From a virus (Duplodnaviria; Caudoviricetes): a stretch of 58,684 nucleotides of DNA. Of the stretch, positions 29,654-58,684 are shown piece after piece. The translations under genes were made by a program, and so were the position numbers. The notes under the pieces were generated by a model. That model was not told the origin of the DNA. It saw only the letters and a list, made by a program, of their open reading frames with translations, and did not search any database. The stretch lies in IMG/VR virus record IMGVR_UViG_3300046804_001439, positions 1-58,684 of that record. One strand, given 5' to 3'. Each line of letters starts with the position of its first letter. The stretch's first letter is position 1.

Positions 29654-29659
29654 ATAAAA

Positions 29660-29758
29660 GCACAGGTTGTAGCATCCCACCACTTTTGCTCCCTGTGTTA
29701 CCCGTTAGGGTAGCAAATCCCAATCGGATCCGCCTCTGATTGGGATTTGTTCTTTTTT
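29660..29758 (+). ncRNA. candidate ~100-nt three-hairpin sRNA (sRNA-B)
   Basis: Own promoter; no ORF; stems GCACAGG/CCTGTGT with AGCA/TGCT (loop TCCCACCACTTT), TACCC/GGGTA, and GCAAATCCCAATCGGA/TCTGATTGGGATTTGT (loop TCCGCC) followed by T-run. Confidence 0.75.
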
Positions 29759-42639: not shown

Positions 42640-42656
42640 TATGCTATAATAGGACT

Positions 42657-42811: not shown

Positions 42812-42982
42812 GCCCTCAGCTGGTGAGGGTAACATATCTCTTTTACGGTTGTCAACTATTTTCCCTGAAAATTTCACAATATGAGATCGAGCTCGATCAA
42901 TGTGGTGGGCATCACAGGGATATATTATAGACAAATGTCAGTGGTCGGATATATAATAGGAACCTAAGCGAAAGGAAACAAT

Positions 42983-44019: not shown

Positions 44020-44171
44020 TGTTAGGATATGACTTAGAGGATTTAAATATAATGATGGATACATTAGGGGATACTCTGACTTCCGCCAAATTAACTAAAC
44101 AGCAACAAGGTGGATTATTAACTACTCTAACATTCTTACAAGGTCTATGGGCAGAGGGGTATTTTGAATAA
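44019..44171 (+). CDS. 50-aa peptide (MLGY...GLWAEG)
   Basis: RBS GAGGAG; TAATG coupling on both sides. Confidence 0.6.
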   Translation: MLGYDLEDLNIMMDTLGDTLTSAKLTKQQQGGLLTTLTFLQGLWAEGYFE

Positions 44172-44494
44172 TGGGACTATATGACGAATCCTGGTGTGTA
44201 GACTGTGGTAAATCACAGCCATATTCACCTGATGATGTAGTATGTGGTTCATGTACATCTGAGGCATATGAATCCCGTTCTAATCATTTAATTGAATATA
44301 TAAAGCTTCATTTAATTAGTCTTGAACAAGACATTGAGAAGTTATCTGATGAAATGGAAAAGGTAGATATGAACTCTAAGGCCTTTAATGATATGGACTT
44401 TGAATATAATAATCTATCAGGGCAGTCTATTGCTACCCGCCATTTATTGTCAGTGGCTAGTGATATACTGGGCATTCAAACAGAGGAGAAATAA
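44171..44494 (+). CDS. Zn-finger/coiled-coil early protein
   Basis: CVDC...CGSC then heptads. Confidence 0.65.
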   Translation: MGLYDESWCVDCGKSQPYSPDDVVCGSCTSEAYESRSNHLIEYIKLHLISLEQDIEKLSDEMEKVDMNSKAFNDMDFEYNNLSGQSIATRHLLSVASDILGIQTEEK

Positions 44495-44787
44495 TGCAAG
44501 AACCAGGAATGTTTACAGAGAAACTGGACCCACACCTACAACGTTTAGTAGACGCTGGAGTTAACGGGCTCGATATCATGCATGGGCATTTGAAGATTCT
44601 CATGCTGGAGGCTGAGGCACAGTATGAAGAAGCACAGCGTATTGAGGAGGAAGACGACTACTCAGACGCAATGCAGTCCATGGAGCGGAAGTACTGGGAG
44701 GGCCAGTGTGACGCTCTAGCACATCTATACAAGTTAACATATGACTTATCATTTGCAATTGCTGATATGAAACGGGAGGAAGAGTAA
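44494..44787 (+). CDS. acidic early protein
   Basis: RBS GAGGAG; YWEGQCDAL. Confidence 0.65.
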   Translation: MQEPGMFTEKLDPHLQRLVDAGVNGLDIMHGHLKILMLEAEAQYEEAQRIEEEDDYSDAMQSMERKYWEGQCDALAHLYKLTYDLSFAIADMKREEE

Positions 44788-45098
44788 TGAAGCCTGGAGA
44801 TAAAGATAAATTAAACCAATGCCTGGATATTCTGGATACTACGGACCTAGGGCTCTCATTGGTCTGGCTGTGGACATGGTCCACGATCAAAAACTTTATG
44901 GCTGATGAAACATTCATCATGAAGAAGACAGAGGATGAGATGTGGGACTGTCTCTGTGAGGCTGTAGACGCAGGCCACGGGTTCTCTCTGGAATACGGGG
45001 CGGAACAACATCATGAGGACGTAATGGAGTGGATGTTGAATCGTGATTACATGGTCGACTCTATGTTTGAACAAGACGAAGAGGAAGACGATGACTAA
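44787..45098 (+). CDS. acidic early protein
   Basis: RBS GGAGG; FSLEYG. Confidence 0.65.
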   Translation: MKPGDKDKLNQCLDILDTTDLGLSLVWLWTWSTIKNFMADETFIMKKTEDEMWDCLCEAVDAGHGFSLEYGAEQHHEDVMEWMLNRDYMVDSMFEQDEEEDDD

Positions 45099-45219
45099 TC
45101 AAGACATAATTAATTTTAAATTAGAATTAGCCCGTGCATGGATTAATAACGGGCAGCACGATTTGGCTAAAGAACTAGTTAGATCTATTATCGAGAGGGA
45201 CGGGGGACAAAATGAGTAA
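45091..45219 (+). CDS. 42-aa peptide
   Basis: MTNQDIINFKLELARAWINNG...; fills gap, RBS GAGGA. Confidence 0.5.
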   Translation: MTNQDIINFKLELARAWINNGQHDLAKELVRSIIERDGGQNE

Positions 45220-45445
45220 TTACGCACCAAGCTTAGAAATCCTGGAAATTGCATATGAAGTATCACCAGGAGGAGAAAGGACATTTGAAGTCTATGATAA
45301 AGATGAATCTGATCCAGTATCTATCCCAATATATGAGACAACATCCTTGACAGATGCTTGTGAATTCTGTTACAATCTCGGTAAGGATTTTATTGTACGT
45401 ACATATGCAGAGTGGGAAATGAGGGAATTACTTGCAGACATTTAG
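45212..45445 (+). CDS. acidic early protein
   Basis: 77 aa ORF. Confidence 0.6.
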   Translation: MSNYAPSLEILEIAYEVSPGGERTFEVYDKDESDPVSIPIYETTSLTDACEFCYNLGKDFIVRTYAEWEMRELLADI

Positions 45446-45671
45446 AGTAATTGGAAGAAGAATGTCCGATTATGCTGCCACCGTAGAAGCAGCAAATGCG
45501 GACCAGGCATATGACATTGCTGCAGATTTAGAGACCCACAAGTGGTCTCAATTGGAAACAGATGATGTGATCGAACCAATTGAGGTGGAGCTCATAGACA
45601 TACAACTAAATAAAGATATAGAAGATGAATGGCCATCAATGGAATCTGGGATTGTAATTGAGGGCAAATAA
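45432..45671 (+). CDS. acidic early protein
   Basis: 79 aa, VEAANADQA motif, TTG start. Confidence 0.55.
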   Translation: MQTFRVIGRRMSDYAATVEAANADQAYDIAADLETHKWSQLETDDVIEPIEVELIDIQLNKDIEDEWPSMESGIVIEGK

Positions 45672-45751
45672 TTTATCTTACGGGGGTATTTACAAATTCG
45701 TGAATATCCGATATAATAAATAAAACACCTATCATAGAAAGGATAGACATA

Positions 45752-45898
45752 ATGACAACAAAGCGAGAATATCTAGCATCAAAGGGAATTACTGTTGGCC
45801 GCCGTGGCCGCTTCTCAGGTGCAGCAAAGCAAGCTTTGGCAGAGGCGGAAAAGAATGGGATCAAGTTCACCGCTGAAGTCAAGACCCCAAAGAAGTAA
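45752..45898 (+). CDS. stand-alone Lsr2-like DNA-binding domain (48 aa)
   Basis: KREYLASKGITVGRRGRFS resembles Lsr2 C-terminal REW-x3-G-x2-V-x2-RGR; own promoter TTTACA-N18-TATAAT, RBS GAAAGGA, terminator. Confidence 0.6.
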   Translation: MTTKREYLASKGITVGRRGRFSGAAKQALAEAEKNGIKFTAEVKTPKK

Positions 45899-45910
45899 AT
45901 AAATAATTCT

Positions 45911-45938
45911 AAAGGGGCTGGCGAAAGTCAGCCCTTTT
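45911..45938 (+). terminator. intrinsic terminator
   Basis: AAAGGGGCTGGC-GAAA-GTCAGCCCTTTTT. Confidence 0.75.
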
Positions 45939-45971
45939 TGATATAATGGCAGGTTCTAAGAAAGGCGGACA

Positions 45972-46256
45972 ATGAACAGTAAAGAAATCAAAGTAGGAGA
46001 ACTCCTAGCAAACTCAGTTGAAGACCATTGGTTCAACCCAGCAACGCTGGGTCATTATCTCAGTCAGCAACCACATTGGACTATCGACAGGGTAATGGAG
46101 GTCGTCTGCTGGATAATTGAGAAGAATGCTCGTATCTATGAGGCAAAGGCGGGGAAACAAGAAATCTCCGAAGGTCTAGCCTTGGCATATAAACTAGACC
46201 AAATCATAGATAAGATAAAAGAAGCAAATAACTTCAACAATATCAAACTGCCCTAA
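45972..46256 (+). CDS. hypothetical protein, last gene of plus-strand module
   Basis: TGATATAAT promoter; RBS AAAGGCGG. Confidence 0.65.
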   Translation: MNSKEIKVGELLANSVEDHWFNPATLGHYLSQQPHWTIDRVMEVVCWIIEKNARIYEAKAGKQEISEGLALAYKLDQIIDKIKEANNFNNIKLP

Positions 46257-46317: not shown

Positions 46318-46676
46318 CAAAATGTGGGCAGCTTTTCCCGTTTACGGGACATATATAAAATCCCTGAAAATTTGATCTAAATGAAATAAAAACTAATTAA
46401 ATGTATATAGAATCTCACATAATGAGATCCAAATCTGTCAAAATATGGGCCAAATTTGTCGTTTACGACCACATATAAAATGCCCCTGAAGCCTTGACAA
46501 TATGGGCCAAATATGCTCTTTACGACAATATGAAAAAAATCCCTGAAATGTATTGACAAGAATTGGTCAATATGGTAGCAAATTGGGATTACGTCTTATA
46601 TAATGAGATGGCCAATTACATGTATATATCTAAATATAATAATTAGTAATAATTGATAGTAATTTGATAACCATTT

Positions 46677-46703
46677 TACTCCACAATACTCCACTTTACT
46701 CCA
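46677..46703. repeat. 3x TACTCCA at 10-bp period next to AT-rich tract
   Basis: TACTCCACAA-TACTCCACTT-TACTCCA. Confidence 0.55.
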
Positions 46704-46765
46704 TTAAAAAGGGCATATAAAGCCCATACAAGGGAGAAAATGGGAGGGGGTAGGAGAAGTATTAG

Positions 46766-46900
46766 CTACTCTTCAAATGAAATTTGTGTAGCCCATATAG
46801 CGTCTTGATCCTTATCTTGAGCTATTCTTGGGCAATAATCTGGATTTCTATTACATCTTGGAAATAAAGAAGATTTATCGCATTTACATAGACTGGTCAT
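46766..46900 (-). CDS. 44-aa Cys-rich peptide
   Basis: MTSLCKCDKSSLFPRCNRNPDYCP... Confidence 0.45.
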   Translation of the reverse strand: MTSLCKCDKSSLFPRCNRNPDYCPRIAQDKDQDAIWATQISFEE

Positions 46901-47162
46901 TTTTATTACCTAAATATCCACCTATATTGGGATTCATCATCTCTTTGGATACTTTCTTGCCATTGGGATATGTATAATGTAATACTCCAGGTATACTGGT
47001 ATCGAGTATTACTTCTGTCCCCGCCTCAAAATGGTCTGAGCATACGAATTTAATCTCATATCCATATGCATTAATTCCAGTTGACTGCTTTTTACAGATA
47101 TGACATTTAGAGGTTTTGAGTTTATTTAACTCTCTTATTGCATCTAAATATCTTTGGGTCAA
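46884..47162 (-). CDS. hypothetical Zn-binding protein
   Basis: CHIC...CSDH. Confidence 0.55.
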   Translation of the reverse strand: MTQRYLDAIRELNKLKTSKCHICKKQSTGINAYGYEIKFVCSDHFEAGTEVILDTSIPGVLHYTYPNGKKVSKEMMNPNIGGYLGNKNDQSM

Positions 47163-47533
47163 CTATGAGCCTCTACGACAAATCCATTTTCACGATCAAA
47201 CATGACAAACTCCATAGATTCAACTGTAAAGTATTCCTTTAGGGTGTTTATAGCCTTATCTAGGTCTAAGCTTCCGCAGGTATATAGATCGAATTGTAGC
47301 AATCCTGGATTAGGCTCATCCCAAATATGAAAGGCAATATGGCTAGTTTCGATCATAACTATTGCGGTTAGACCCTTATTCCCTTCTGCATCTACATAGG
47401 ATGCAAATGGGCCTTTTATAATCTTCATATCAATTCGGTTGACTAAATCTTTTAGGAAATTAATTCCCTGTTCTTCTGTATTCATTGGATTGGTTACTTT
47501 AGCATTAACCAATAAGTGCTTATGAAATATCAT
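47159..47533 (-). CDS. speD: S-adenosylmethionine decarboxylase proenzyme
   Basis: GLTAIVMIETSHIAFHIW self-cleavage region and DLYTC. Confidence 0.8.
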   Translation of the reverse strand: MIFHKHLLVNAKVTNPMNTEEQGINFLKDLVNRIDMKIIKGPFASYVDAEGNKGLTAIVMIETSHIAFHIWDEPNPGLLQFDLYTCGSLDLDKAINTLKEYFTVESMEFVMFDRENGFVVEAHS

Positions 47534-47938
47534 TTATTTCTCCTTCTTTATTAATCTCCAGGCGTCTCCAGTTACTGGGTCTTCCTGCCATTCTGTATAT
47601 AGCCAATATGGATATCCTAGATTATCGTAGTCATCCCATGCTTCCCCGCTTAAATCCATATTCTCTAAATCCTCTTTTAGCTTAGCCATATCTAATTGAT
47701 ATAGAGTTCCCCAACGCATATATGGTCTACCAAGAATATCATATAATCTCCACCAAAGCTTCAGTCTGAAGTCATTCTGAAATACTCTTTCTTCCGCCCC
47801 CATATTATCTAATAGGTCATGTCTACGTAAACCCAGATAAAAGAACTTCATAGACAATGGCTCAAATAGGTAATTGGCCAGCCATCGCAATGGCAATATG
47901 CGTGTGTTCTGGATTTTAATAGAAATGTCTTCTCTCAT
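47534..47938 (-). CDS. hypothetical protein
   Basis: 134 aa ORF in operon. Confidence 0.6.
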   Translation of the reverse strand: MREDISIKIQNTRILPLRWLANYLFEPLSMKFFYLGLRRHDLLDNMGAEERVFQNDFRLKLWWRLYDILGRPYMRWGTLYQLDMAKLKEDLENMDLSGEAWDDYDNLGYPYWLYTEWQEDPVTGDAWRLIKKEK

Positions 47939-47957
47939 CGCCGCACTTTTCGCTTCA

Positions 47958-48467
47958 CTAATTGCGTGGTATATTCCATAATATTTCCTTATCTTTATTA
48001 TAATATCTAGCTAATACAAATAGTAGATCGGATAGTCTATTTAAATATATTGGGATTAGATCATTAATATTCTCGTATTCGGTTGCCCACCATACCTTTA
48101 ATTCAGCCCTGCGAACTACTGTCCTAGCAAAGTGTATAGAGCCTGTAGGGAGCACAAACGAATTTAATGGCTTTAGCAGGGCGTTAGTACCATCTATATA
48201 GGTCTCTAGTCTATCTATATATTCTTGTGTAATCTTAATCTTATCTGAACCACATAGGTCTGCTCCAAGATCGAATAGGTCATTTTGAACCTGATTAAAT
48301 ATTTTATAATTGCCATCTTGTGGAATTAATCCAATAGCTGAATTTGCTTCATCTACTGCTCCTAGAGCAATAATTATTGGACTGTCTTTCTTCTCCCGCC
48401 GATTATTTGCTAGAGAAGTGGTTCCATCATCACCAGTCTTAGTATAAATTTTAGTTAGATGAACCAC
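47958..48467 (-). CDS. PduO-type ATP:cob(I)alamin adenosyltransferase
   Basis: KIYTKTGDDGTT, GAVDEANSAIG, QNDLFDLGADL, ARTVVRRAE, YLNRLSDLLFVLAR. Confidence 0.92.
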   Translation of the reverse strand: MVHLTKIYTKTGDDGTTSLANNRREKKDSPIIIALGAVDEANSAIGLIPQDGNYKIFNQVQNDLFDLGADLCGSDKIKITQEYIDRLETYIDGTNALLKPLNSFVLPTGSIHFARTVVRRAELKVWWATEYENINDLIPIYLNRLSDLLFVLARYYNKDKEILWNIPRN

Positions 48468-48764
48468 TTACTCAACCTTTGCCATGATATGTTTATGGTT
48501 AATCAATAAATATTTATTTCCTTCTTCATCTTCAATGTCTGTACCTGTGTGGTCTGGGAAATATACTATGTCTCCAATTTTAAGTTCTGGAATAGAAACA
48601 AGGTCCCCTTTGTAATTGACTTCACCAATACCCATATCTACAATTGTTCCAGACTTTGGGCCATAGTCATTAAATGATGCAGAAATAACAAGTCCAGACT
48701 TTGTTGTTTTATCCTCTTCCTGCTTTTTTGTAATTAATAACATCCCGCCTATTGGTTTAATCAT
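48468..48764 (-). CDS. groES: GroES-like co-chaperonin
   Basis: IKPIGG, TTKSGLVI mobile loop, KIGD, YLLI. Confidence 0.8.
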   Translation of the reverse strand: MIKPIGGMLLITKKQEEDKTTKSGLVISASFNDYGPKSGTIVDMGIGEVNYKGDLVSIPELKIGDIVYFPDHTGTDIEDEEGNKYLLINHKHIMAKVE

Positions 48765-48859
48765 AGCATTTCCTTCCACTTATCTGTTTGTCTACATATT
48801 GGACAAAATAACATGCCCAATGGCTTTCCGCAATCACATTCTAAAACACTATTAGTCAT
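48761..48859 (-). CDS. 32-aa Cys peptide
   Basis: CDCG...CPIC; ATGA overlap with groES. Confidence 0.45.
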   Translation of the reverse strand: MTNSVLECDCGKPLGMLFCPICRQTDKWKEML

Positions 48860-48860
48860 A

Positions 48861-49004
48861 TTATTCGTCGTCTAATTCCACATCAAATGGATCACTTAAA
48901 TCTAACTGATTTAAACTTTCTAGAGATTTATATCCTAATATAGTAACTGCAATAAAGCTGGCTATTGCAATTAAAGCTAATGCCAATTTCTTGTTATTGC
49001 TCAT
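48861..49004 (-). CDS. 47-aa membrane peptide
   Basis: MSNNKKLALALIAIASFIAVTILGY...; RBS GGAGG. Confidence 0.55.
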   Translation of the reverse strand: MSNNKKLALALIAIASFIAVTILGYKSLESLNQLDLSDPFDVELDDE

Positions 49005-49264
49005 TTTGGATCCTCCATTATCATGTCTATAATTGCATAGCAGTCACATCCGCCATACCTACATTCAACCATTCGTAGGCCATACTTTCTTTCTTCGCCT
49101 TCTGCTGCCAATAAATGTTGTTCTTGAATAAGAGACGCTACTCTTTCTCGTTCTCTTTTTTCAGCTTTTTTACACCCATTACATGGACACTTCCAAATAG
49201 TTTTCTTATAACTAATCTGATCTCTAGGGTCTCGCCAAGCATTTTCTGCTGCTTCAAGATCCAT
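49001..49264 (-). CDS. hypothetical Cys-containing protein
   Basis: CPCNGC motif. Confidence 0.6.
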   Translation of the reverse strand: MDLEAAENAWRDPRDQISYKKTIWKCPCNGCKKAEKRERERVASLIQEQHLLAAEGEERKYGLRMVECRYGGCDCYAIIDMIMEDPK

Positions 49265-49496
49265 TTTTATTTTCTTCCAAATCTTCTACTAGGCTTTCGT
49301 ATCTTCGTTTCCAAGTTTCAGCTTTTTCTTCAGCATCTAACCATTGTGATTTCATAAAATCATGTTTTTCATATGCCTCATTTATAAGGTTCTGCATATA
49401 ATTAGTTTTAGATGTTATATCTGAATTAGTTGCTTGAGCTCTTCCTACAGCAATTCCAGAAAATAATATGATTAAATCCCAAAGGATCCCCCACAT
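49254..49496 (-). CDS. membrane-anchored coiled-coil protein
   Basis: N-terminal hydrophobic segment; promoter TTGACA-N18-TATAAT; atypical RBS GAGGCGG. Confidence 0.6.
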   Translation of the reverse strand: MWGILWDLIILFSGIAVGRAQATNSDITSKTNYMQNLINEAYEKHDFMKSQWLDAEEKAETWKRRYESLVEDLEENKNGS

Positions 49497-49625
49497 ATCC
49501 GCCTCTTTCTCTATGCCTTAATTATATAGGAAAGTCCAGGGTTTTGTCAATAGAATCATCTATTGTTTTGCTATGTTCTTTAACACAATTCCCGCACTCT
49601 TTACACATATTGCTCCAATAAAGAT

Positions 49626-49658
49626 CCCCATAGGCCCTAATTTGTAGGGCTTATGGGG
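49626..49658. terminator. hairpin/terminator
   Basis: CCCCATAGGCCCTA...TAGGGCTTATGGGG. Confidence 0.55.
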
Positions 49659-49666
49659 AATTGTAT

Positions 49667-49885
49667 TTATACCTTTTTAGATCTTCCAGTTCTTTTTTGA
49701 GGAATACTTGTTTCACGTCTGATGCCATGTTTATTGGTATCAATTCTTGTCAAAGCCCTTTTGTCCTGAACGCCTGATCTAAATTTACCTTGGCTTGGAT
49801 TTTTTCTTCCAACTTCTTGCGAAGTTACTGCTCCAGATGGTTGATTATTTGGAGGAGTATCCATACCTGTTCCATTATCACTCAT
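49667..49885 (-). CDS. basic low-complexity protein
   Basis: 72 aa ORF coupled to upstream peptide. Confidence 0.55.
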   Translation of the reverse strand: MSDNGTGMDTPPNNQPSGAVTSQEVGRKNPSQGKFRSGVQDKRALTRIDTNKHGIRRETSIPQKRTGRSKKV

Positions 49886-50039
49886 TAATAAATCTTTCTC
49901 TTTGTTCTGGAGTTGCAGTCATATTTAATGTAAGACCAGATTCTCCATCACGGGTAACATCAAGCATGCCTCCTGGGATTTTTGCATCTCCCATTCCAGT
50001 GCCTACTGTCTCCATCCCACAACCGCATTCAATGCACAT
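49878..50039 (-). CDS. 53-aa peptide with MCxxCGC start
   Basis: MCIECGCGMETVG...; TAATG coupling. Confidence 0.55.
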   Translation of the reverse strand: MCIECGCGMETVGTGMGDAKIPGGMLDVTRDGESGLTLNMTATPEQRERFINE

Positions 50040-50206
50040 TACATGTTCTCTGATTCTGGATATGCATTTGTTTCTGCACGATTACCCATTTCATATGAAC
50101 CTTCTGCATTAAAGCCTGCATTTCCTTGAGCTGAAACGTCCTTTGCAGGGAAAGCTGACTTCAATGGTTCTGTATAATTTACTGATGGTACATTATTTGT
50201 TGTCAT
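50039..50206 (-). CDS. 55-aa peptide
   Basis: RBS AGGAG; MTTNNVPSVNYTEP... Confidence 0.55.
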   Translation of the reverse strand: MTTNNVPSVNYTEPLKSAFPAKDVSAQGNAGFNAEGSYEMGNRAETNAYPESENM

Positions 50207-50256
50207 TTTATTCTCCTATAGGTTATTAGGCATTTTAGTTGCCTAAACCAATTATA

Positions 50257-50376
50257 TCATTTTTTATACTTGTCATGCCAATGATCAGAACATATTTCTA
50301 TCATTTTTGACTCTGTAGTAGTAAGATGAGTGGCTGGATTATTACATCCAGCCACCTCACATTTATTTTGCCCCAT
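50257..50376 (-). CDS. 39-aa Zn-finger peptide
   Basis: CEVAGC...CSDH. Confidence 0.5.
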   Translation of the reverse strand: MGQNKCEVAGCNNPATHLTTTESKMIEICSDHWHDKYKK

Positions 50377-50506
50377 TAGCTTTCTGTCCGTTATATCCAG
50401 TTTTTTTCTTATTCATTGATCCTGGTTTTTTAAATCCATTACCTTTAGGCATATTTGCTTGTCTTATTGCCAAAGATTTTTGAATTTTATCTAAATGTTT
50501 TCCCAT
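50363..50506 (-). CDS. 47-aa basic peptide
   Basis: MGKHLDKIQKSL...FKKPGSMNKKK; TAATG coupling. Confidence 0.5.
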   Translation of the reverse strand: MGKHLDKIQKSLAIRQANMPKGNGFKKPGSMNKKKTGYNGQKANGAK

Positions 50507-50712
50507 TACTTCTTTTTTGTAGTTTTCTTAGGAGCAGTTTTCTTAGCAGGAGTCTTCTTTGCTGGAGACTTCTTTGCTGGAGCCTTCTTTTTAGCTGCTG
50601 GCTTCTTTGCTGTTTTCTTCACAGTAGTTACCTTTCTTTCTGGCTCATCTAAAATTAGAGGAGTATGCTTTAACTCTTCTGGGAAAAGCCACTTTTTAAA
50701 TTTATTCCACAT
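50506..50712 (-). CDS. histone-H1-like Lys/Ala/Pro repeat protein
   Basis: KKTAKKPAAKKKAPAKKSPAKKTPAKK tail. Confidence 0.65.
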   Translation of the reverse strand: MWNKFKKWLFPEELKHTPLILDEPERKVTTVKKTAKKPAAKKKAPAKKSPAKKTPAKKTAPKKTTKKK

Positions 50713-50843
50713 TATTTTTTATCTATCTTTCTGATTATATAATCAATTACTAGTTGTGGCTTCCAGTCATTTGGAAGCTCAAGATTACGGATTTCTTTTA
50801 CTATGTCCCGTCGAACTTTATCCTGTATGTAATCTTCCACCAT
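50712..50843 (-). CDS. 43-aa peptide
   Basis: MVEDYIQDKVRRDIVKEIRNLELPNDWKP... Confidence 0.5.
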   Translation of the reverse strand: MVEDYIQDKVRRDIVKEIRNLELPNDWKPQLVIDYIIRKIDKK

Positions 50844-50907
50844 ATTATTCTATCATTTATATAATAAGGAGGCAAGACCTTAGTCCTGCCCCCTTATTAA
50901 AATTAGA

Positions 50908-51951
50908 TTACTTTACTAAAGTAACCTTAGCCTTAGGGTTCTTCTTGTTCCACTTAACAGCGAGAGCATTAAACGCCTTCTTAAGGTCAGCGATAGCCTT
51001 TGTGCTTGCAGCGGTTGCTGCTGCTGCATCAGCCTTTAGCTTAGCAATTTCAGCATCCTTAGCTGCTGAAGCCAATTTTGTTGCTTCATGAGCAGCCTTT
51101 TCTGCTGCCAACTGTGCTGCAATTGTTGCAAGTTCTGCTGTAATATCACGAACCTGTACAATCTTTACTGCTGAAGCAGATGGAGTGCTAAATCCAGTAA
51201 CTGCTGTTGCCATGTCTGCAGATGCAGCATATACAACGATTGTAACTGGGCCAGTTGCTGGAGCAACAAACTTAACGTCTGCTGAACCAAAATTTGTTAG
51301 GCCAGATCCAGTAGTTACTGTTGTTGAGTCTAATGTAGCACCATTAGCAATTGCTGAAATTGACTTTCCAGAAATCTTATTTCCAAATACGTCAACTGCT
51401 GAAATTGTTACAGTTACTGATGTACCTGCTGCTGCTGCGTCAACTCCACTTAGAACAAGGTTGTTGATCTTGTCAGTTGTGCCCTGTACAAAATATGTTG
51501 TTGTGGTTCCACCATTTGTAATGGATACTGAACCAATTGCTGTCGTTTTAGTATATACATAAAACGTTGCTGTTGTACCTGTACCAACATTTTGTGACCA
51601 AGTAGCAGCACCTGATGCTGCAGTCTTTGGTGAAGTGCTTGTTGCTACTGCATCAACAATTAAAGCATTTGTTGCAGAAACTGAAACAGATGTTCCAAGA
51701 TCTACTGTTGCGACGAACTTTACAACATCAACATTGTCTACAGAATTATCTGTAGGAACTGGACGTGTAATTGCGCTGGTTGTTGCTGTACCAGCAGTTG
51801 CTGGAGTATCATAATCAGCACCGCCAGCCTTTGCTGCGTTCCAAGTAGTTACTGCTACTGTCATAGGAGCAGCACTTGCAGGTGTTGCCACGAGTGTGCC
51901 CATAGTCATAGCTGCAACTACGGCTAGAGCGATTTTCTTAAATGACTTCAT
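50908..51951 (-). CDS. secreted Ig-like/S-layer-like surface protein
   Basis: Sec signal peptide ending ASA, Ala/Thr/Val-rich beta domains (VDVFGNKISG), C-terminal coiled coil and basic tail; flanking hairpins. Confidence 0.7.
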   Translation of the reverse strand: MKSFKKIALAVVAAMTMGTLVATPASAAPMTVAVTTWNAAKAGGADYDTPATAGTATTSAITRPVPTDNSVDNVDVVKFVATVDLGTSVSVSATNALIVDAVATSTSPKTAASGAATWSQNVGTGTTATFYVYTKTTAIGSVSITNGGTTTTYFVQGTTDKINNLVLSGVDAAAAGTSVTVTISAVDVFGNKISGKSISAIANGATLDSTTVTTGSGLTNFGSADVKFVAPATGPVTIVVYAASADMATAVTGFSTPSASAVKIVQVRDITAELATIAAQLAAEKAAHEATKLASAAKDAEIAKLKADAAAATAASTKAIADLKKAFNALAVKWNKKNPKAKVTLVK

Positions 51952-51999
51952 TTAATTTATTTCTCCTTATCATATCCACCCCTTAATGAGCGTGGAAAC

Positions 52000-52233
52000 T
52001 TAATTTGTGTACGAGTTCCGCCATTGAGACGGTGAGTGATTATCCTCAATTTCATTTTTCATATCAATGTCTTCGTACATTCGAACAACATGCATGCATG
52101 GATCCTGACCATCGTCAAAGCCTTGCATTTCGTGTTCGGACATTGGTAGTCCGTCATGTGTATAGCATACTGGAGGTCCACACCATCCCTTTTCTATCCC
52201 GTATGCAATCCATTCATCAAATGTTAAATCCAT
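52000..52233 (-). CDS. hypothetical protein
   Basis: GW-x-GPPVC-x-THDG...DPC-x-HVVR. Confidence 0.65.
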   Translation of the reverse strand: MDLTFDEWIAYGIEKGWCGPPVCYTHDGLPMSEHEMQGFDDGQDPCMHVVRMYEDIDMKNEIEDNHSPSQWRNSYTN

Positions 52234-52526
52234 TCTGCCAACTCCTTCATCAGGCGGTGTTTTGGCATTGCTCCCACTAAAGTGTGGACTGGATTTCCAT
52301 CCTTAAATAATACCATAGTAGGTATTGTTTGTATAGAGTATTCAGAAGTTTTTATCTGATTCTCATCAACATTTAATTTTCCAACCAAGAGTCGAGTTTC
52401 GGTTGAGAGTTCTTCTAATATTGGATTCATTTTTTTACATGGACCGCACCAGTCTGCCCAGAAATCCACCAATATTAGCGGGTTATCTTTAATTGTTTGA
52501 TCAAAATTTGAGTCAGTAATTATCAT
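52224..52526 (-). CDS. trxA: thioredoxin
   Basis: VDFWADWCGPCK, LNVDEN, IPT. Confidence 0.92.
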   Translation of the reverse strand: MIITDSNFDQTIKDNPLILVDFWADWCGPCKKMNPILEELSTETRLLVGKLNVDENQIKTSEYSIQTIPTMVLFKDGNPVHTLVGAMPKHRLMKELAEWI

Positions 52527-53017
52527 GCTGCCATCACCTTCAACATATGGGTAGGCCAATAATATTGGCATCTGTCACAGCAAGGCCTGTTGTTTTTATC
52601 TGTAACTGATGATGCAAACTCTGCATAAAAAATAGGATCTTTGCGATATAAATTTGCTTTATGTGTAGCATTTACACGCTTAATAGTTGTAGGATTAATA
52701 GCCCACAAAGGAGTCTCATCTCCCCAATTTAAAGATGCACGAGAGCGGGAAAGTTTTTCTAGGTTATCTTTATTTTTATCTGTTTTGATACCACGCATAT
52801 CTGCCAAAACAACAGCAGTCATAGCATAGCGATATAGCTCAGACTCCGCACCTTCCCACATTAAAACCGCTGGGTGATTCCGCCAGGCATTAGATTTAGA
52901 GTTTCCAGTTAATATATTAAGTATTTGATAGCACTCAAGTATTTGTTTATTTAGACGTTTATTGTCTAGAGCATCTAGGCTATCACGCTTAGATGCATAT
53001 GGTAGAAATGTTTGCAT
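52523..53017 (-). CDS. pyrimidine-dimer DNA glycosylase/endonuclease V-like protein (MSMEG_6728-like)
   Basis: MQTFLPY, LDNKRLNKQ, WRNHPAVLMW, H-x-x-NL-x-RKDP, YYWP. Confidence 0.8.
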   Translation of the reverse strand: MQTFLPYASKRDSLDALDNKRLNKQILECYQILNILTGNSKSNAWRNHPAVLMWEGAESELYRYAMTAVVLADMRGIKTDKNKDNLEKLSRSRASLNWGDETPLWAINPTTIKRVNATHKANLYRKDPIFYAEFASSVTDKNNRPCCDRCQYYWPTHMLKVMAA

Positions 53018-53058
53018 ATTCCTATTCTACTAAATAGACATAGGAAAAGTCAATACCC

Positions 53059-53271
53059 TTATGGCTTATCTTTTAATTCTTCTGCTGCTGCGTTAAATTT
53101 ATCCATGAAGCTTTGAATGACAAACAAAGTAGTTTCTTGTGCATTTTTACCAACGGCTTCTGAACTTAATTCATTCTTTTCTTCTTCTGGCATAGCGTTA
53201 TACCAACGCTGATATAGCTCTTTAGCAATATCAATAATTATTGATTCTAATACAGTGGTTTGATTTGACAT
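53059..53271 (-). CDS. hypothetical protein
   Basis: 70 aa ORF. Confidence 0.6.
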   Translation of the reverse strand: MSNQTTVLESIIIDIAKELYQRWYNAMPEEEKNELSSEAVGKNAQETTLFVIQSFMDKFNAAAEELKDKP

Positions 53272-53435
53272 TACTCTTTTGGCTTTCTATCGTACCACTT
53301 GCCAGCGTCAAGTCCTGGAAGCTTAATGCCCTTTGAATCAAGCAATGCTTGTAGGGTAATTTTTAAATATTCTGTTTCAAAATGTAGACGCATGACCTCT
53401 AATTCAAGCAATCTAAGTCTATCTCTTTTATTAAT
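53271..53435 (-). CDS. ~54-aa hypothetical protein (start uncertain)
   Basis: Open frame NKRDRLRLLELEVMRLHFE...LDAGKWY fills the gap; first codon at expected position is ATT. Confidence 0.4.
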   Translation of the reverse strand: MNKRDRLRLLELEVMRLHFETEYLKITLQALLDSKGIKLPGLDAGKWYDRKPKE

Positions 53436-53760
53436 TTTCTGACTCTTCTCTATCTAATGGTGTAGGTGCTGTTGCTAAATTTCCGCATTCAGCACAATAC
53501 ATATCTAAAAAGTATGTGGCAATCTCATATTCTTGAAAAACTACTTTAACAAGCCAAACTTGAGATCCACAAACACATACATGCGTGGGCCTTCCACGCA
53601 AATCCAAAGCAGTTACTTCTTCATCTTCTTGCTCTAGATCTTCTTCTTTATCTAAAATAACTATTTCATATTTTCTGATAAAGTTTTGAAATGAAACATA
53701 TCCTTTTACCATTATGGCTAATACAATAAAAACCATAGACAAAGGAATGATAGTTTCCAT
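53431..53760 (-). CDS. membrane-anchored Zn-ribbon protein
   Basis: N-terminal TM; PTHVCVCG...CAECG...APTP. Confidence 0.65.
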   Translation of the reverse strand: METIIPLSMVFIVLAIMVKGYVSFQNFIRKYEIVILDKEEDLEQEDEEVTALDLRGRPTHVCVCGSQVWLVKVVFQEYEIATYFLDMYCAECGNLATAPTPLDREESEN

Positions 53761-53774
53761 ATGTCTATTATACT

Positions 53775-54341
53775 CTAGACCTCAATAATTGTAAAGGGTG
53801 GTCTTACTGACATGTTAAACTTAGCTGCCGCCTCTAAGGCCATACGTACACGCTTACGTGGAGTCTTGACTTGAGCTGTAGAAAACAAGGATCCAAGTGC
53901 TAGTTCTTGTCCAGCGCCCTCTGACATATATTGCACATCAGCTTCTCCAATATGAAAGTCTGAATCCATTGTAAATATTCGTCCAGCACCTTGAACTGCT
54001 ATTAAAAATATTCCGCCTTCATCGCCATCTTCAGTTCCAGATGTAAAATTGCCATAACCATGTTCTTTAAAAGCATCTTTAACCGATTCAACAAATTTTG
54101 TTCTAATAAATTTATCTAAGTTTCTATATCCAGCAGTTGGAGTGTATTTTGGTGGAGTCCAATTGTATTGAAGAATTTGTCCCATTCTAAAACTATCAAC
54201 AAAACCAATTCCGTATTGACCTACTTTAAAAACTTTAGGATCTGTGCGCTGAAAGATTAAACCAGACTTATCGTCTGATGCGGCAGCGTCTCCGCCCATA
54301 AAGACTTTATTTTCATGAATTAGGGCTACTATGCAGGTCAT
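53775..54341 (-). CDS. Ntn-hydrolase (HslV/proteasome beta-like) protein
   Basis: N-terminal Thr after Met (MTCIVA), GGD, PKVF, GAG...ALG, ALEAA. Confidence 0.7.
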   Translation of the reverse strand: MTCIVALIHENKVFMGGDAAASDDKSGLIFQRTDPKVFKVGQYGIGFVDSFRMGQILQYNWTPPKYTPTAGYRNLDKFIRTKFVESVKDAFKEHGYGNFTSGTEDGDEGGIFLIAVQGAGRIFTMDSDFHIGEADVQYMSEGAGQELALGSLFSTAQVKTPRKRVRMALEAAAKFNMSVRPPFTIIEV

Positions 54342-54369
54342 ATAGCCTAGTATACTATTTTTATTATTA

Positions 54370-54678
54370 CTAGTCCAGATTCTCGCTTATTTCAAGTATA
54401 TTAAGCTGGGACAAGGCATTTTCTAATTCAGATTTAACCTCAATTAATTCCTGAATGGCATTATAGTATTTATCTTTCCACTCAGTTAATTCTTTTTCCA
54501 ATTTATATAATTCTATTTTTAAATCTTTTAAATCTAATTTAAGGTGGTCCTGCTCACGCTCACGCTGACGAACTACTTCCTTTTTATGTTCTCTAACTGA
54601 GGCAATAATCGCTGTACCCATACCGCTAGCCATGGCGGCTAATATGGCTAAAGCAATTGCTGAATAATTATTGTTCAT
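54370..54678 (-). CDS. TM + coiled-coil protein
   Basis: Hydrophobic N-terminus then heptads. Confidence 0.6.
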   Translation of the reverse strand: MNNNYSAIALAILAAMASGMGTAIIASVREHKKEVVRQREREQDHLKLDLKDLKIELYKLEKELTEWKDKYYNAIQELIEVKSELENALSQLNILEISENLD

Positions 54679-54712
54679 TATATTAATAATTATACAGTAG
54701 TTTTAGATATAA

Positions 54713-54949
54713 TTAGACCAAAAGCTCCGATGCAGAAATTTCATTTCCAGCGTATCTTCTCTTTAAAATAAATTCTTTTACAGAATCTGGGCCGTTTGAT
54801 CTACCAGCCAAAATAATAACCCAGCGTGGCTCAAATTTTGAATTCACACATGTTTCACAGATTAAAAGATTAATTGGAAGTAATGAAGATTTTTTAACAT
54901 CTAGTTTATTTTTAGACTTATTGCATGAATAGCATAAAATTTTATCCAC
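54713..54949 (-). CDS. small Zn-finger protein
   Basis: CYSC...CETC...EPRW. Confidence 0.6.
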   Translation of the reverse strand: MDKILCYSCNKSKNKLDVKKSSLLPINLLICETCVNSKFEPRWVIILAGRSNGPDSVKEFILKRRYAGNEISASELLV

Positions 54950-55146
54950 TATTCTTGCTCCTCTACATGCTGATGAACAATTTCATCTACAATTGTGAAA
55001 TCCTCATTTGCAAGTAGCTCCTGATTATCGTGTCCGTGTTTTGTATAATTAACCAATGATGCGTATGCTCCCATTTTTTCTACAGTTCCGTAACAATTTT
55101 CTGAATGAATGTATACAATATGTACAACATCATAGTACTCTTTCAC
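54949..55146 (-). CDS. hypothetical protein
   Basis: 65 aa ORF in whiB operon. Confidence 0.55.
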   Translation of the reverse strand: MKEYYDVVHIVYIHSENCYGTVEKMGAYASLVNYTKHGHDNQELLANEDFTIVDEIVHQHVEEQE

Positions 55147-55450
55147 TTGGCTTACCCTCCAACTCGCATCTTACGCCATATGACTCTATTAATTTCTTTA
55201 CCTTTGTAACGTAATCTATAACCATTTCTTTTTTAATTCCGTCAAACTGTATAAAATTATCTTCATATAATCTCAATGCAAGAAAGTCTGGGTATTTAAC
55301 TATATCCATAAGCAGCATTGCTGGCTTAGGTATTTCGTGAACTCTCTTTTTCATCTCATCAGTATAGAATACAGGCTTATTGGGCTCTCCAGTCCACTGA
55401 TTAATTCCATATTTAAAATGTTCTGCTGGATCTTTTTTATTAATGAACAC
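55130..55450 (-). CDS. hypothetical protein
   Basis: 106 aa ORF in whiB operon. Confidence 0.6.
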   Translation of the reverse strand: MFINKKDPAEHFKYGINQWTGEPNKPVFYTDEMKKRVHEIPKPAMLLMDIVKYPDFLALRLYEDNFIQFDGIKKEMVIDYVTKVKKLIESYGVRCELEGKPSERVL

Positions 55451-55751
55451 CGCTGCCCCTTAGCTTTTTCCATATTTCAGAAGTTTTATGTAAATTTTTT
55501 GATTTATCTATAGTTCCAGATGATAAATATACTCCGCCCCAAACACCGTATTCATTATTATCAATACCACTTTGATAACACATTGATATTACTGGACAAG
55601 ATAAACACATTTCATCTATATTTTTAGCAATATTTGGATCTGCTTCATATTTATCAAAAAACATATTTGTGTCCATCCCTCTACAAAGAGAAAGATCAAA
55701 CCAATTAAAATGTTCTTCGTCTATTCCTAGATCACGTAAAATTTTTGACAT
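55440..55751 (-). CDS. whiB: WhiB-family Fe-S transcription factor
   Basis: C...FF...CLSCPV-x3-C and GVWGG; start reassigned to ATG 55751. Confidence 0.9.
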   Translation of the reverse strand: MSKILRDLGIDEEHFNWFDLSLCRGMDTNMFFDKYEADPNIAKNIDEMCLSCPVISMCYQSGIDNNEYGVWGGVYLSSGTIDKSKNLHKTSEIWKKLRGSGVH

Positions 55752-55959
55752 ATTTTTTTGGAAGTTTCCATACTCCGTTTTGATCAACGACAAAACGTTC
55801 TGCCGTTCCCCACATATCCTGCTTAAATATGCCCTTTATATTTGTAAAACCATTAATATCTTTTTTCCAAATAACTAGATCGTAATTATCCCAATACGGG
55901 ACTATATTTTTTGCCTTCTTGATGAAGACTTCTACACCTAATTCTGTTAGATTTAACAT
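55732..55959 (-). CDS. hypothetical protein, first gene of whiB operon
   Basis: 75 aa; promoter TTGACA-N18-TATAAT at 56028..55999. Confidence 0.65.
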   Translation of the reverse strand: MLNLTELGVEVFIKKAKNIVPYWDNYDLVIWKKDINGFTNIKGIFKQDMWGTAERFVVDQNGVWKLPKKYVKNFT

Positions 55960-56031
55960 GCTGTCCTAAACATAAACCGCAGCATCCCACTGATATATAT
56001 TATACAGTAAATGTTGCGGCTGTGTCAATAC

Positions 56032-57141
56032 TTATTTCCAGTTTTCTGGAATCATGTCGCTAAGACCCAATGCCCTAGCACGACGCTTAATATGCTCCTT
56101 AACTTTTGGATCTGCTCCACCACGACCCCATGAACGAATTGCGTTCATTAAATCGGTTTTATTTCCAATTGGATATGATCCATCTGGCATTGCATGTCCC
56201 TGCTCTGCCATTTGTCTACGCTGTTCTGTTGAAAATTTACGCTTTACTAATTCATATGGATCTAAATCACCAAATAGAGATTTCTTTATTTTAGGCTCTT
56301 CTTTGTCTTCTACATCATAAGCTTTCTCTACTGGGATACAATTTGGAACCATGCGGCCATTTTTTTCCTTCATACCACGTTGAGTATATCCAGTCCAGCA
56401 TTTTTGTAAACTATTATCCCACTTATCTTCATCTTCATTATCAGACTCATAAGTTTCATTTTGATTTTCTGCCTCTAAATCTGTCTGTCCATCCATTTTA
56501 GATACTGGCCAATTTACATCATTTTTTTCTGGATCTCCAACTGGGGCTGGATTTCCATCAGATCCATTTTCGGTTTCCATGTTTGTTCCATCTTCTGATT
56601 CTGAATTATCTTCTTCTGGAACTTCAATCATGCCTTCAATAGCTTCCATTAAATGTTCAATTACCATTCCAAGTTGCTCTTTTGTAACTTCAGGTCTCAA
56701 AGCCTTTTTAATTTCTTCATCGTCATCAATTTCAATTACTGTATCTACTGGATTTATAGCATCGTCTAGCATATCTTTAATTTCTTCAACCAATTCTTCT
56801 TGAGTGTATGATTTTTTCATATTCTTTTCTCTTTCCACAATTTTTCTAGACCAAGAGAAACCAGCATCGCCACCCCAGGCATCCCACATAATTCGACCAT
56901 TAGAGGGATTAGAAGTATTATAAAAGTCCTTGCCCTTTTTGTCTACTTCATGTCTGGAAAAGAAAGAATACATTCTTTTAACAGTAGACAAACTTAATGT
57001 CTCACCACGAGCAAGCTGCCCTGCACGAGTCCAACCTACAGCTGTTCCAGCTCCAGTTGCTTTTCCTTGTTCTTTCCAACGAATAGCTCTTTTAGCAGCT
57101 GATTTCATTCCAGCGGTTGGCTTGTATCCTTCTTTTGCCAT
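56032..57141 (-). CDS. multi-module head-associated-type protein
   Basis: N-terminal TVKRMYSFFSRH...WGGDAG domain, acidic linker, CWTGY...VPNC motif, C-terminal AMPDGSYPI...HIKRRARALG module. Confidence 0.6.
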   Translation of the reverse strand: MAKEGYKPTAGMKSAAKRAIRWKEQGKATGAGTAVGWTRAGQLARGETLSLSTVKRMYSFFSRHEVDKKGKDFYNTSNPSNGRIMWDAWGGDAGFSWSRKIVEREKNMKKSYTQEELVEEIKDMLDDAINPVDTVIEIDDDEEIKKALRPEVTKEQLGMVIEHLMEAIEGMIEVPEEDNSESEDGTNMETENGSDGNPAPVGDPEKNDVNWPVSKMDGQTDLEAENQNETYESDNEDEDKWDNSLQKCWTGYTQRGMKEKNGRMVPNCIPVEKAYDVEDKEEPKIKKSLFGDLDPYELVKRKFSTEQRRQMAEQGHAMPDGSYPIGNKTDLMNAIRSWGRGGADPKVKEHIKRRARALGLSDMIPENWK

Positions 57142-57284
57142 TATTTCTCCTTTACATTAATAACTTTTACAGACTTAACTTCTTCATCTACACCAAATAT
57201 ATCGTTTACATAGTCTGCAGCATCTTCTTCGCTAAATGCCTGAACTTCTACATTTACTTCAAGCTTGATGCTATAATTTTTCAT
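57141..57284 (-). CDS. 47-aa peptide
   Basis: MKNYSIKLEVNVEVQAFSEEDA...; TAATG coupling on both sides. Confidence 0.55.
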   Translation of the reverse strand: MKNYSIKLEVNVEVQAFSEEDAADYVNDIFGVDEEVKSVKVINVKEK

Positions 57285-57859
57285 TATTTAATTTCTTGAT
57301 GACAGGTTGGACAAACTTTTTTTTCTACAGATGAAGCTGCTGTCTTTGCAGATCCTGCACCTTTAAACTTAGGGCGTCCAAATCCAACAATAGAAATCAT
57401 CTCTCCTTGTTTATTTTTTCTAAATGCACGAAGCTTCTTAGAAACCTGTCCGCCATTTCTTTGTGAGCCTTTTTTATCTGGGCTTGTATTGCCTTCAATA
57501 CACCAAACTGTGCCGTCTTCATTATCTTTAATAACAATTCCTACGTGAGAAATTCTATCGACACCATCTGATGGGAAATCAAAATACGCAATATCTCCTG
57601 GTTCTGGATCTGCCAGATCTCCATCAATCCATGCGCCAGCTTTCTTAAATGCTTGTGCTCCACCTGGAGTATAAACAGTATTTGGAACCTTTACACCAGC
57701 TTCATTAGCACACCACATTACGAAAGAGCCACACCATGGCTGGAAGTTAGCCTTTGTAAATGCACCATATTTTGTTTCGTTATCTTTAGGACCTTCAATG
57801 GTTCCTAGTTCTGCTGTAGCAACTTCAATTAAACGTGCTGCTGTACCTTGCTCTGCCAT
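57284..57859 (-). CDS. CHAP-domain endolysin
   Basis: PWCGSFV, PGDI, HVGIV, IEGNT catalytic motifs. Confidence 0.88.
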   Translation of the reverse strand: MAEQGTAARLIEVATAELGTIEGPKDNETKYGAFTKANFQPWCGSFVMWCANEAGVKVPNTVYTPGGAQAFKKAGAWIDGDLADPEPGDIAYFDFPSDGVDRISHVGIVIKDNEDGTVWCIEGNTSPDKKGSQRNGGQVSKKLRAFRKNKQGEMISIVGFGRPKFKGAGSAKTAASSVEKKVCPTCHQEIK

Positions 57860-57861
57860 TA

Positions 57862-58272
57862 TTAGTCCTTATCCCAATCAGTATCAACTGGCTGTTGTTC
57901 TGGCATTTGTCCATCTGGCTTTGCTGCAAGACGTGCCATTGTTGCATCAATTTCTGCTTCAAGCTTCTTATCCGCCTGAGTATTCTTGGCATCCATCTCT
58001 TTATTATCGAGCTGTGCCTTCATAATATCTTTTGCACCACTTTGTCCAATTAATAAACCAGCAAGTGTTCCTGTAATAAATGTTGCTACGCTTCCAAGAA
58101 CATTGAAGAACATCTTATCGTTCTCTGACTGTGCTCCAATTGGTTGCGTTACAAACAAAAGTCCATATAAAATTCCTACCGCTGTAAGGAATAGAATGGA
58201 ACCTAATGTGATTCCTAAAATAAATTTTAATCTAGCGTCCAGATCTTGTGGACTTAGTCTCTCTTTAGCCAT
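57862..58272 (-). CDS. two-TM holin-like protein
   Basis: Two hydrophobic helices, adjacent to endolysin; start reassigned to ATG 58272. Confidence 0.6.
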   Translation of the reverse strand: MAKERLSPQDLDARLKFILGITLGSILFLTAVGILYGLLFVTQPIGAQSENDKMFFNVLGSVATFITGTLAGLLIGQSGAKDIMKAQLDNKEMDAKNTQADKKLEAEIDATMARLAAKPDGQMPEQQPVDTDWDKD

Positions 58273-58483
58273 TTGTAGTACCTGTTTCAGTAGTAGTAGT
58301 TGATGCTTTACCAATTACATCTTTAGTGCATGTGCCGCTTGCTTCACAAATTGGAGGATTGCATTCCGCCTTCTCCCAATTCGCAGGGTCTTGGCATGGG
58401 TATCTATATGAACCCTGAAAGCCGCAGCTAGTTAATGATAGCATTAATAGACCTGATAAAGCAATAGCAGTTATTCTTTTCAT
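58265..58483 (-). CDS. small Cys-rich lipoprotein
   Basis: Signal peptide with LTSC lipobox; RYPCQDP-x-NW...C-x-PP-x-C...C. Confidence 0.7.
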   Translation of the reverse strand: MKRITAIALSGLLMLSLTSCGFQGSYRYPCQDPANWEKAECNPPICEASGTCTKDVIGKASTTTTETGTTNG

Positions 58484-58499
58484 ACTACTATTATATCAT

Positions 58500-58684
58500 T
58501 TATTCGTCTTTATCTTTAGAGCCCTTAGCCCCAAAATAACCGCCAATAATACCTATAAGACCTCCAAGGGCTGTCTGAACAAGGGTCATAACCTCTGCAG
58601 ATACCTCTACAGGCTCTCCTGTTTTTTGAGTTTCTAAAGCTGCAGTTACATAATCTCCTACAATAGCTGTAATAATTGCAATTC
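58500..58684 (-). CDS. membrane protein, 5'-truncated by window
   Basis: ...TLVQTALGGLIGIIGGYFGAKGSKDKDE-stop. Confidence 0.55.
   Translation of the reverse strand, partial: IAIITAIVGDYVTAALETQKTGEPVEVSAEVMTLVQTALGGLIGIIGGYFGAKGSKDKDE

Follow-up and report, generated by a model that had tools for sequence, protein, structure and literature searches.

We describe a candidate small RNA (sRNA) gene, here called sRNA-B, in a 58,684 bp caudovirus record (IMG/VR IMGVR_UViG_3300046804_001439; hereafter, the window, meaning this whole stretch), whose product may base-pair with the 5' end of the messenger RNA (mRNA) of a whiB operon encoded 26 kb away on the other strand. The operon comprises a first open reading frame (ORF) of 75 codons (ORF75) and the whiB-like gene whose start it overlaps. 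We put the probability of a real, conserved sRNA-mRNA interaction between sRNA-B and the whiB leader at about 0.55; both the pairing of the two RNAs and its effect on translation and/or decay of the ORF75-whiB mRNA are inferred from sequence. The case is built on a complementarity between two motifs that are each conserved, one in the apical loop of a covarying RNA hairpin and one at the predicted mRNA start.

The leader of the operon, GUGGGAUGCUGCGGUUUAUGUUU (55990..55968, minus strand), was paired by RNAduplex with AAGCACAGGUUGUAGCAUCCCAC (29658..29680, plus strand) at 22 of 23 positions, six of them G:U, with one A:C mismatch and a hybrid energy of -26.8 kcal/mol. A 10-bp Watson-Crick core joins leader GUGGGAUGCU with sRNA AGCAUCCCAC, and the exact 10-mer occurs twice in the window, in the whiB leader and on the antisense strand of the sRNA gene. 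These figures reproduce those of the original prediction, which was made from the letters of the window, but only part of its 23-nt pairing is shared by relatives: about 14 bp (55990-55977 with 29667-29680) are conserved, whereas the remainder is not kept. The extension pairs leader GGUUUAUGUUU with sRNA AAGCACAGG, and the sRNAs of relatives read GUACUGG there; the conserved duplex therefore stops 7–10 nt before the Shine-Dalgarno (SD) sequence. The claim that the site abuts the SD thus applies to the window, in which 55968 lies next to AGGA (55967), and not to the relatives. Opening energies were 0.95–4.9 kcal/mol for 29671-29682 and 29667-29680 and 12.0 kcal/mol for 29659-29680, and because of this cost of opening the lower stem of hairpin 1 the full 23-nt duplex has a poorer net energy (about -6 kcal/mol) than the 14-bp core (-8.8 to -11.7 kcal/mol).

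The sRNA partner belongs to a family that could be traced well beyond the window. It is kept in six relatives reached via a downstream 90-aa ORF, and lies directly upstream of that ORF in all six. RNAalifold on the six sequences showed compensatory change in 11 of 33 pairs, and a covariance model built from them detected sRNA-B in 13 of 50 whiB-bearing viral records (E ≤ 1.8e-5). The exact hairpin-3 pattern matches at least 120 viral contigs, and every one of the 79 loci newly listed by this pattern fits the covariance model. In an alignment of 69 distinct members, which was fitted to the model and whose members were picked through the exact hairpin-3 pattern, 92.8% of cells were paired (38–48% in slid controls; 94% in helix 3), both sides had changed in 21 of 33 pairs, and the covariation score was 0.408 vs 0.168 in shuffles, none of 500 of which scored as high. 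The apical loop of hairpin 1 varies between lineages; GUAGCAUCCCAC is found in 16 of the 19 covariance-model matches and in most of the 81 family members.

Both ends of the gene are predicted from sequence. A -35/-10 pair stands at a fixed distance from hairpin 1 in 38 of the 47 unique upstream sequences of family members, four further ones have TGTGATAAT by eye, and the terminator scan predicted a 17-pair stem followed by a U-run (29712-29758). No Rfam 15 family reached its gathering score on sRNA-B, seven weak matches at E up to 10 being found around the gene, and no published description of it was found in the literature listings and abstracts searched. Taken together, the covariation and the flanking signals indicate that sRNA-B is a genuine conserved RNA gene, seemingly transcribed on its own, and it would represent a new RNA family whose kind is that of a trans-acting base-pairing phage sRNA. 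The descending terminator arm doubles as the -35 element (TTGGGA) of a putative next promoter (29740-29769, plus strand), and the -10 box of that promoter, GGTATAAT, shows no variation among the six closest relatives. This terminator-promoter overlap is the same arrangement as at the whiB operon.

At the other locus, the promoter named in the original prediction (TTGACA-N18-TATAAT) is present on the minus strand with a 12/12 consensus match, and TTGACA together with TGTATAAT is kept in the listed relatives. Judged from this promoter, the operon mRNA likely starts at about 55992-55990. Among 58 whiB loci gathered by protein similarity, GTGGGATGCT directly follows the same promoter in 26, and in a 27th it occurs only within the upstream ORF; for GGGATGCT in this position the count is 35 of 62 loci (24 unique sequences). 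Whatever the spacing variant, no more than about 1–4 nt separate the predicted start from the beginning of the motif. The start region of ORF75 is also kept in relatives, and the ORF belongs to phrog_10869, of unknown function. In locus L019 (about 2900-3000) the canonical leader stands only ~50 nt from the whiB match and ORF75 is apparently missing.

The promoter spacer AGCCGCAACAUUUACUG is also complementary to leader CAGUGGGAUGCUGCGGUU, and the two can fold as the arms of a long RNA hairpin whose apex holds the -10 box; the stem base GCCGCA/UGCGGU is followed by the U-rich UUUAUGUUU (55974-55968). This hairpin has z < -2 in 30 of 35 unique relatives (mean -4.6), and its arms covary (CCGCAGC/GCUGCGG vs CCGUAGC/GCUACGG, with very different stems in L038, L049 and L054). 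In 33 of 35 the hairpin folds more stably as sense than as antisense RNA, with a mean difference of 6.4 kcal/mol, and 118 of 621 pairs are G:U. A reading of the promoter palindrome as a double-stranded DNA (dsDNA) operator is ruled out by this strand asymmetry. The folding data indicate that the hairpin is an RNA-level element in transcripts from upstream genes, and it likely serves the preceding genes as an intrinsic terminator that overlaps the whiB-operon promoter. In L022 and L045 a transfer RNA (tRNA) gene lies directly 5' of the ORF75 homologue and replaces promoter, hairpin and leader, and in L054/L055/L059 a tRNA gene in the same place comes after a promoter and hairpin.

The terminator hairpin accounts for part of the conservation of the leader and not for its fixed sequence, because the spacer arm varies while GUGGGAUGCU does not, and because L056 keeps GUGGGAUGCUAC without the promoter hairpin. 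Hairpin 1 of the sRNA behaves likewise: its 5' AGCA is fixed and the 3' partner varies (UGCU, UGUU, AGCU). In both partners, the invariant arm is the one that pairing in trans would use.

The two motifs also occur together. Twenty records hold both loci, and these comprise 13 with a canonical loop and a canonical leader (loop ...GCAUCCCAC with whiB leader GGGAUGCU), seven in which both are of another kind (one of them without hairpin 1), and no mixed cases. The recurrence of the complementarity in relatives holding both loci, on which the original prediction depended, therefore extends to 13 of 13 canonical-loop records and fails in three lineages with other loops, in which it is at chance. 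The cognate duplexes of the canonical class (-19.3 to -25.6 kcal/mol) were matched by 0–1 of 200 leader shuffles in all 11 pairs tested, and shuffles of the window's own leader never matched the observed energy (0/200).

A genome-wide ranking of pairing sites, the check proposed along with the original prediction, gave a qualified answer. In the accessibility-aware scan of the window the leader was fourth among non-self sites (-8.8 kcal/mol). For an mRNA beginning at the predicted start site, opening the target would cost 5.0 instead of 7.9 kcal/mol, and the total of about -11.7 kcal/mol would rank first, ahead of the next site at -10.9 kcal/mol. With an 18-nt hairpin-1 query on both strands, the leader was the best non-self site in three of three genomes: that of the window and those of two relatives, both complete, at 104 and 110 kb. 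A whole-length duplex scan that ignored opening costs left the leader outside the top 25; it was discarded as a test, since long bulged duplexes dominate under that condition.

Other sites that ranked high for hairpin 1 were 39680-39706 (plus strand), in the spacer of a promoter-like site before a 353-aa ORF, and 48731-48750 (minus strand), at codons 4–10 of a GroES-like gene, where the pairing is not kept in relatives. The upstream 369-aa ORF contains a 9–10-nt copy of the leader motif (GTGGGATGCC; 56878-56887, minus strand; codons for MWDAWGG), and GTGGGATGCT has a copy inside the same upstream ORF in L022 (2030-2039) and L026 (2180-2189). These copies could be further pairing sites or a coding coincidence.

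Several observations weigh against an interaction between sRNA-B and the whiB leader. The hybrid energy in this genome alone is at chance level: 12 dinucleotide-shuffled genomes gave best hairpin-1 duplexes of -24.2 to -29.4 kcal/mol, with 2–12 windows at or below -24 kcal/mol per shuffled genome vs nine in the real one. A few perfect 10-mers are expected by arithmetic between a 40-nt RNA and 117 kb, and in the three ranked genomes the lead over the next site was only 0.1–2.3 kcal/mol. The conserved duplex does not reach the SD, and the role of the leader as 3' arm of a strongly conserved terminator hairpin gives it another cause to be conserved. The co-occurrence of loops and leaders is confounded by relatedness, three of the 13 records being near-identical, and the WhiB tree, mosaic and of poor resolution, does not allow independent co-changes to be counted. 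Leaders of the three lineages with other hairpin-1 loops were matched by 48, 81 and 140 of 200 shuffles.

The original prediction proposed looking for compensatory changes in sRNA and leader, and none was seen in the relatives examined. In G073, sRNA GACGCAUCCCAC faces leader GCUGUGG, which leaves a 9-bp core and then two uncompensated mismatches. The leader variant GUGGG-UGCU was found in four loci, and when an sRNA carrying the corresponding deletion was looked for, there was no sRNA-B among the 80 listed of 103 matching stretches, a blank rather than a negative result. The remaining variation of loop and leader is G:U-neutral and uninformative on compensation.

Several of these points would fit a complementarity without a function of its own, an explanation that we consider possible and rather unlikely. 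The leader would then be kept as terminator 3' arm and as the stretch that a strong promoter transcribes first, hairpin 1 would be kept for another partner (a host mRNA, a protein or another phage target), and the match would be chance or a relic of a common origin with the hairpin's 5' arm (GCCGUAGCAU vs GUUGUAGCAU). Such a view draws on the chance-level energy in one genome, on the missing compensatory changes with the sRNA, and on a promoter hairpin that is conserved, with covariation, in 30 of the 35 unique sequences and shows strand specificity in 33 of them. Deletion-variant leaders (L010, L016, L029, L058) moreover keep a perfect hairpin via spacer-arm changes, and the sRNA family occurs with other loops and in records without whiB. 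The records of L003/L004, L002 and L006, all of them incomplete, have no whiB, and the leader motif in five whiB-less records gave three matches, all on the antisense strands of their sRNA genes. However, a hairpin constrains pairing and not sequence, yet GUGGGAUGCU is fixed with a partner arm free to vary, the motif persists in L056 where the hairpin is gone, and hairpin 1 of sRNA-B has the same asymmetry of one fixed arm. For two conserved complementary motifs of at least 11 nt, one in an apical loop and one at an mRNA 5' end, we estimate a chance probability of the order of 1e-4 to 1e-3, before allowing for the search.

Two further explanations concern one or both loci as regulatory sites in cis. 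sRNA-B could serve the genes downstream of it (29778-30535) as a leader/attenuator or as a transcriptional insulator, with a factor on the invariant hairpin-3 loop controlling the terminator. That the 90-aa ORF comes immediately after it, both in the window and in six of six loci found via that ORF, would suit this, as would the invariance of the terminator-hairpin loop (19/19), unusual for a plain terminator. We nevertheless regard it as quite improbable: the conserved -10 box after the U-run suggests that the downstream gene has its own promoter, and the conserved C-rich hairpin-1 loop and the matching leader 26 kb away are left unexplained, while a role in cis is in any case compatible with one in trans. 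Alternatively, the shared 12-bp motif GTGGGATGCTRC could be a dsDNA site for a phage or host protein, just downstream of both starts, that co-regulates the sRNA gene and the whiB operon, given that the two loci share it unchanged as duplex DNA (at about +1 to +12 for the whiB operon and +13 to +24 for the sRNA gene). This is very improbable in our judgement, for the motif is non-palindromic and in opposite orientation at the two sites, and within the sRNA gene it falls precisely on the loop and upper arm of an RNA hairpin that covaries. The whiB promoter hairpin, for its part, bears the marks of selection on the sense RNA, G:U pairs included, rather than of a DNA palindrome, and no further copies of the motif were found at promoters.

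If the interaction between sRNA-B and the whiB leader is real, we envisage an sRNA of ~100 nt that acts in trans. The first contact would be made by AUCCCAC, the C-rich loop at the tip of hairpin 1, and pairing would then extend into the upper 5' arm (UUGUAGC), giving ~14 bp with the first nucleotides of the ORF75-whiB mRNA, itself presumably made from the perfect-consensus, host-type promoter. In read-through transcripts the promoter spacer would hold the target within the terminator hairpin, whereas mRNA initiated at the promoter would present it single-stranded and exposed. A duplex at the 5' end, 7–10 nt before the SD, may alter translation initiation and/or 5'-end-dependent decay, and hence the amount of WhiB. 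We lean towards repression that grows as a stable sRNA-B accumulates, although activation may occur instead. AUGCUG and CAGCAU in the free leader of the window can pair over the start codon, a feature absent from most relatives; sRNA binding would undo this pairing, and sRNA-B would then activate translation in this window.

The loop of hairpin 3 may offer a second seed. The loop itself, AUCCGCCUCU, is complementary to 49506-49497, directly before the ATG of ORF80, whose promoter is the only other 12/12 consensus promoter on either strand. The hairpin 3/ORF80 duplex reached -28.1 kcal/mol in the window, a value matched by none of 200 shuffles. GGCGGA before the ORF80 start is kept in the homologues of G005, G018/G022/G015, G009 and G023 (protein identity 38–58%); the homologue in G073 has GGCGGC (15/200 shuffles), that in G034 has lost the motif, and no ORF80 homologue was found in G037. 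The ORF80 site ranks only sixth among non-self sites in the window and is outside the top eight in G023, and we treat this pairing as a weak lead. The wider loop sequence, GGAUCCGCCUC, presumably resembles the 3' end of 16S rRNA (the anti-SD region), and from this likeness the loop might bind SD-like sequences generally.

(A/U)GGCGGA is also present near the 5' end of five whiB leaders without GGGAUGCU (L032, L038, L046, L033/L037, L312), and the leaders of L030/L031 and L052 have GGCGG only. The (A/U)GGCGGA leaders are complementary to UCCGCC of the hairpin-3 loop, with energies at chance (48 and 81 of 200 shuffles). One might combine these patterns into a widespread two-seed riboregulator family, with sRNA-B as its founding member, in WhiB-encoding phages that are probably freshwater actinophages, in which a lineage-specific hairpin-1 loop would address the 5' end of the ORF75-whiB mRNA and the invariant hairpin-3 loop would address SD/start regions with (A)GGCGGA, such as that of ORF80 and, where the first motif is absent, the whiB leader. 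Since only promoter-initiated transcripts would expose the whiB site, the RNA could tell early from late transcripts. We think this combined scheme unlikely and offer it as speculation.

The window has a G+C content of 37%, and its genes are arranged in blocks: those in 1-28462 and 46377-58684 are on the minus strand, those in 28484-46256 on the plus strand. It encodes a ribonucleotide reductase whose best relatives are from Streptomyces and Mycobacterium phages, while the relatives of the window phage as such are metagenomic viral contigs; the phage carrying sRNA-B is likely a freshwater actinobacterial phage. A DNA-level search of both loci against 50,697 phage records gave no matches, and across the window three tRNA genes were the sole Rfam 15 matches to reach the gathering threshold (Table 1).

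Table 1 Coordinates of the sRNA-B locus, the whiB-operon locus and other annotated elements of the window.
Feature	Position	Strand	Description and basis
Predicted sRNA-B promoter	29625-29653	+	TTGACT 29625-29630, 17-nt spacer, TATACT 29648-29653; consensus scan
sRNA-B, about 100 nt (predicted)	29659-29758	+	minimum free energy fold -43.7 kcal/mol; terminator scan
sRNA-B hairpin 1	29660-29698	+	
sRNA-B hairpin 2	29699-29712	+	
sRNA-B terminator hairpin 3	29713-29750	+	
sRNA-B U-run	29751-29758	+	
Conserved seed UUGUAGCAUCCCAC	29667-29680	+	top of 5' arm and apical loop of hairpin 1
Hairpin-3 loop AUCCGCCUCU	29728-29737	+	wider GGAUCCGCCUC (to 29740) invariant in 19/19 covariance-model matches; possible second seed
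tRNA genes Thr-TGT, Asn-GTT, Asp-GTC	30534-30684; 40796-40872	-; +	three tRNA genes
ORF80 promoter and start region	49494-49550	-	TTGACA 49550-49545, TATAAT 49526-49521; AGAGGCGGAU-AUG 49506-49494
whiB-like gene	55440-55793	-	overlaps end of ORF75; Pfam PF02467 Whib, E 9.2e-12; PHROG WhiB families
SD and ORF75	55732-55967	-	AGGA 55967-55964, ATG 55959 to 55732; first gene of the operon; ORF list
Extension GUUUAUGUUU region	55968-55976	-	pairs in window only
Conserved target GUGGGAUGCUGCGG	55977-55990	-	predicted mRNA 5' end; 14 contiguous pairs, -24.4 kcal/mol
Long RNA hairpin	55975-56021	-	5' arm = promoter spacer, apex = -10 box, 3' arm = leader; -20.8 kcal/mol
Predicted ORF75-whiB promoter	55999-56027	-	TTGACA 56027-56022, 18-nt spacer, TG-TATAAT 56006-55999; 12/12 consensus

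WhiB-type regulators are common in phages of Actinobacteria, and their distribution is among the subjects treated in PMC8612146. Were the proposed pairing true, an RNA family present in at least 120 environmental phage contigs would set the level of a phage transcription factor, and phages of uncultured, probably freshwater, Actinobacteria would offer a testable case of post-transcriptional control. To our knowledge, how phages control their WhiB-type regulators has not been established. Regardless of the pairing, the RNA family outside Rfam 15 and the promoter inside a terminator hairpin stand as reusable annotations.

The pairing proposed for sRNA-B recalls several known systems. Among the weak Rfam matches, the best, to 29688-29762, was ctRNA_pGA1 (RF00236), a small antisense RNA with a terminator hairpin; membership in that family was rejected at 21.1 bits vs a gathering score of 45 (E 0.046). 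Lambda OOP and P22 sar are transcribed opposite their targets and are fully complementary to them. sRNA-B resembles these as a phage RNA complementary to the mRNA of an early regulator, but the genes here are 26 kb apart (29.7 kb and 56.0 kb) and the complementarity covers 14–22 bp with wobble pairs. RsaE/RoxS carry UCCC loops, 6C RNA is an actinobacterial sRNA with C-rich loops, and RoxS pairing at the extreme 5' end of the yflS mRNA can stabilise rather than repress. As in these RNAs, a C-rich apical loop (AUCCCAC) of sRNA-B would meet a G-rich mRNA segment (GUGGGAU); unlike them, sRNA-B is encoded by a phage and has a candidate phage target, with a conserved duplex upstream of the SD and not on it. 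Neither RsaE/RoxS nor 6C was among the seven weak Rfam matches (E up to 10) around the sRNA gene.

The nearest parallels in arrangement are c4 of P1/P7, which acts on the icd-ant leader, and CI of P4. Both are structured phage RNAs with loops complementary to short leader sites of a regulatory operon, in which a small first ORF precedes the regulator gene and pairing near its start is thought to set operon expression, and both are cut from the same transcript as their targets. sRNA-B shares with P1 c4 and P4 CI the loop-to-leader complementarity and the small ORF before a regulator; it differs in having its own predicted promoter and terminator, in lying 26 kb from its putative target on the other strand, and in its unrelated sequence and host.

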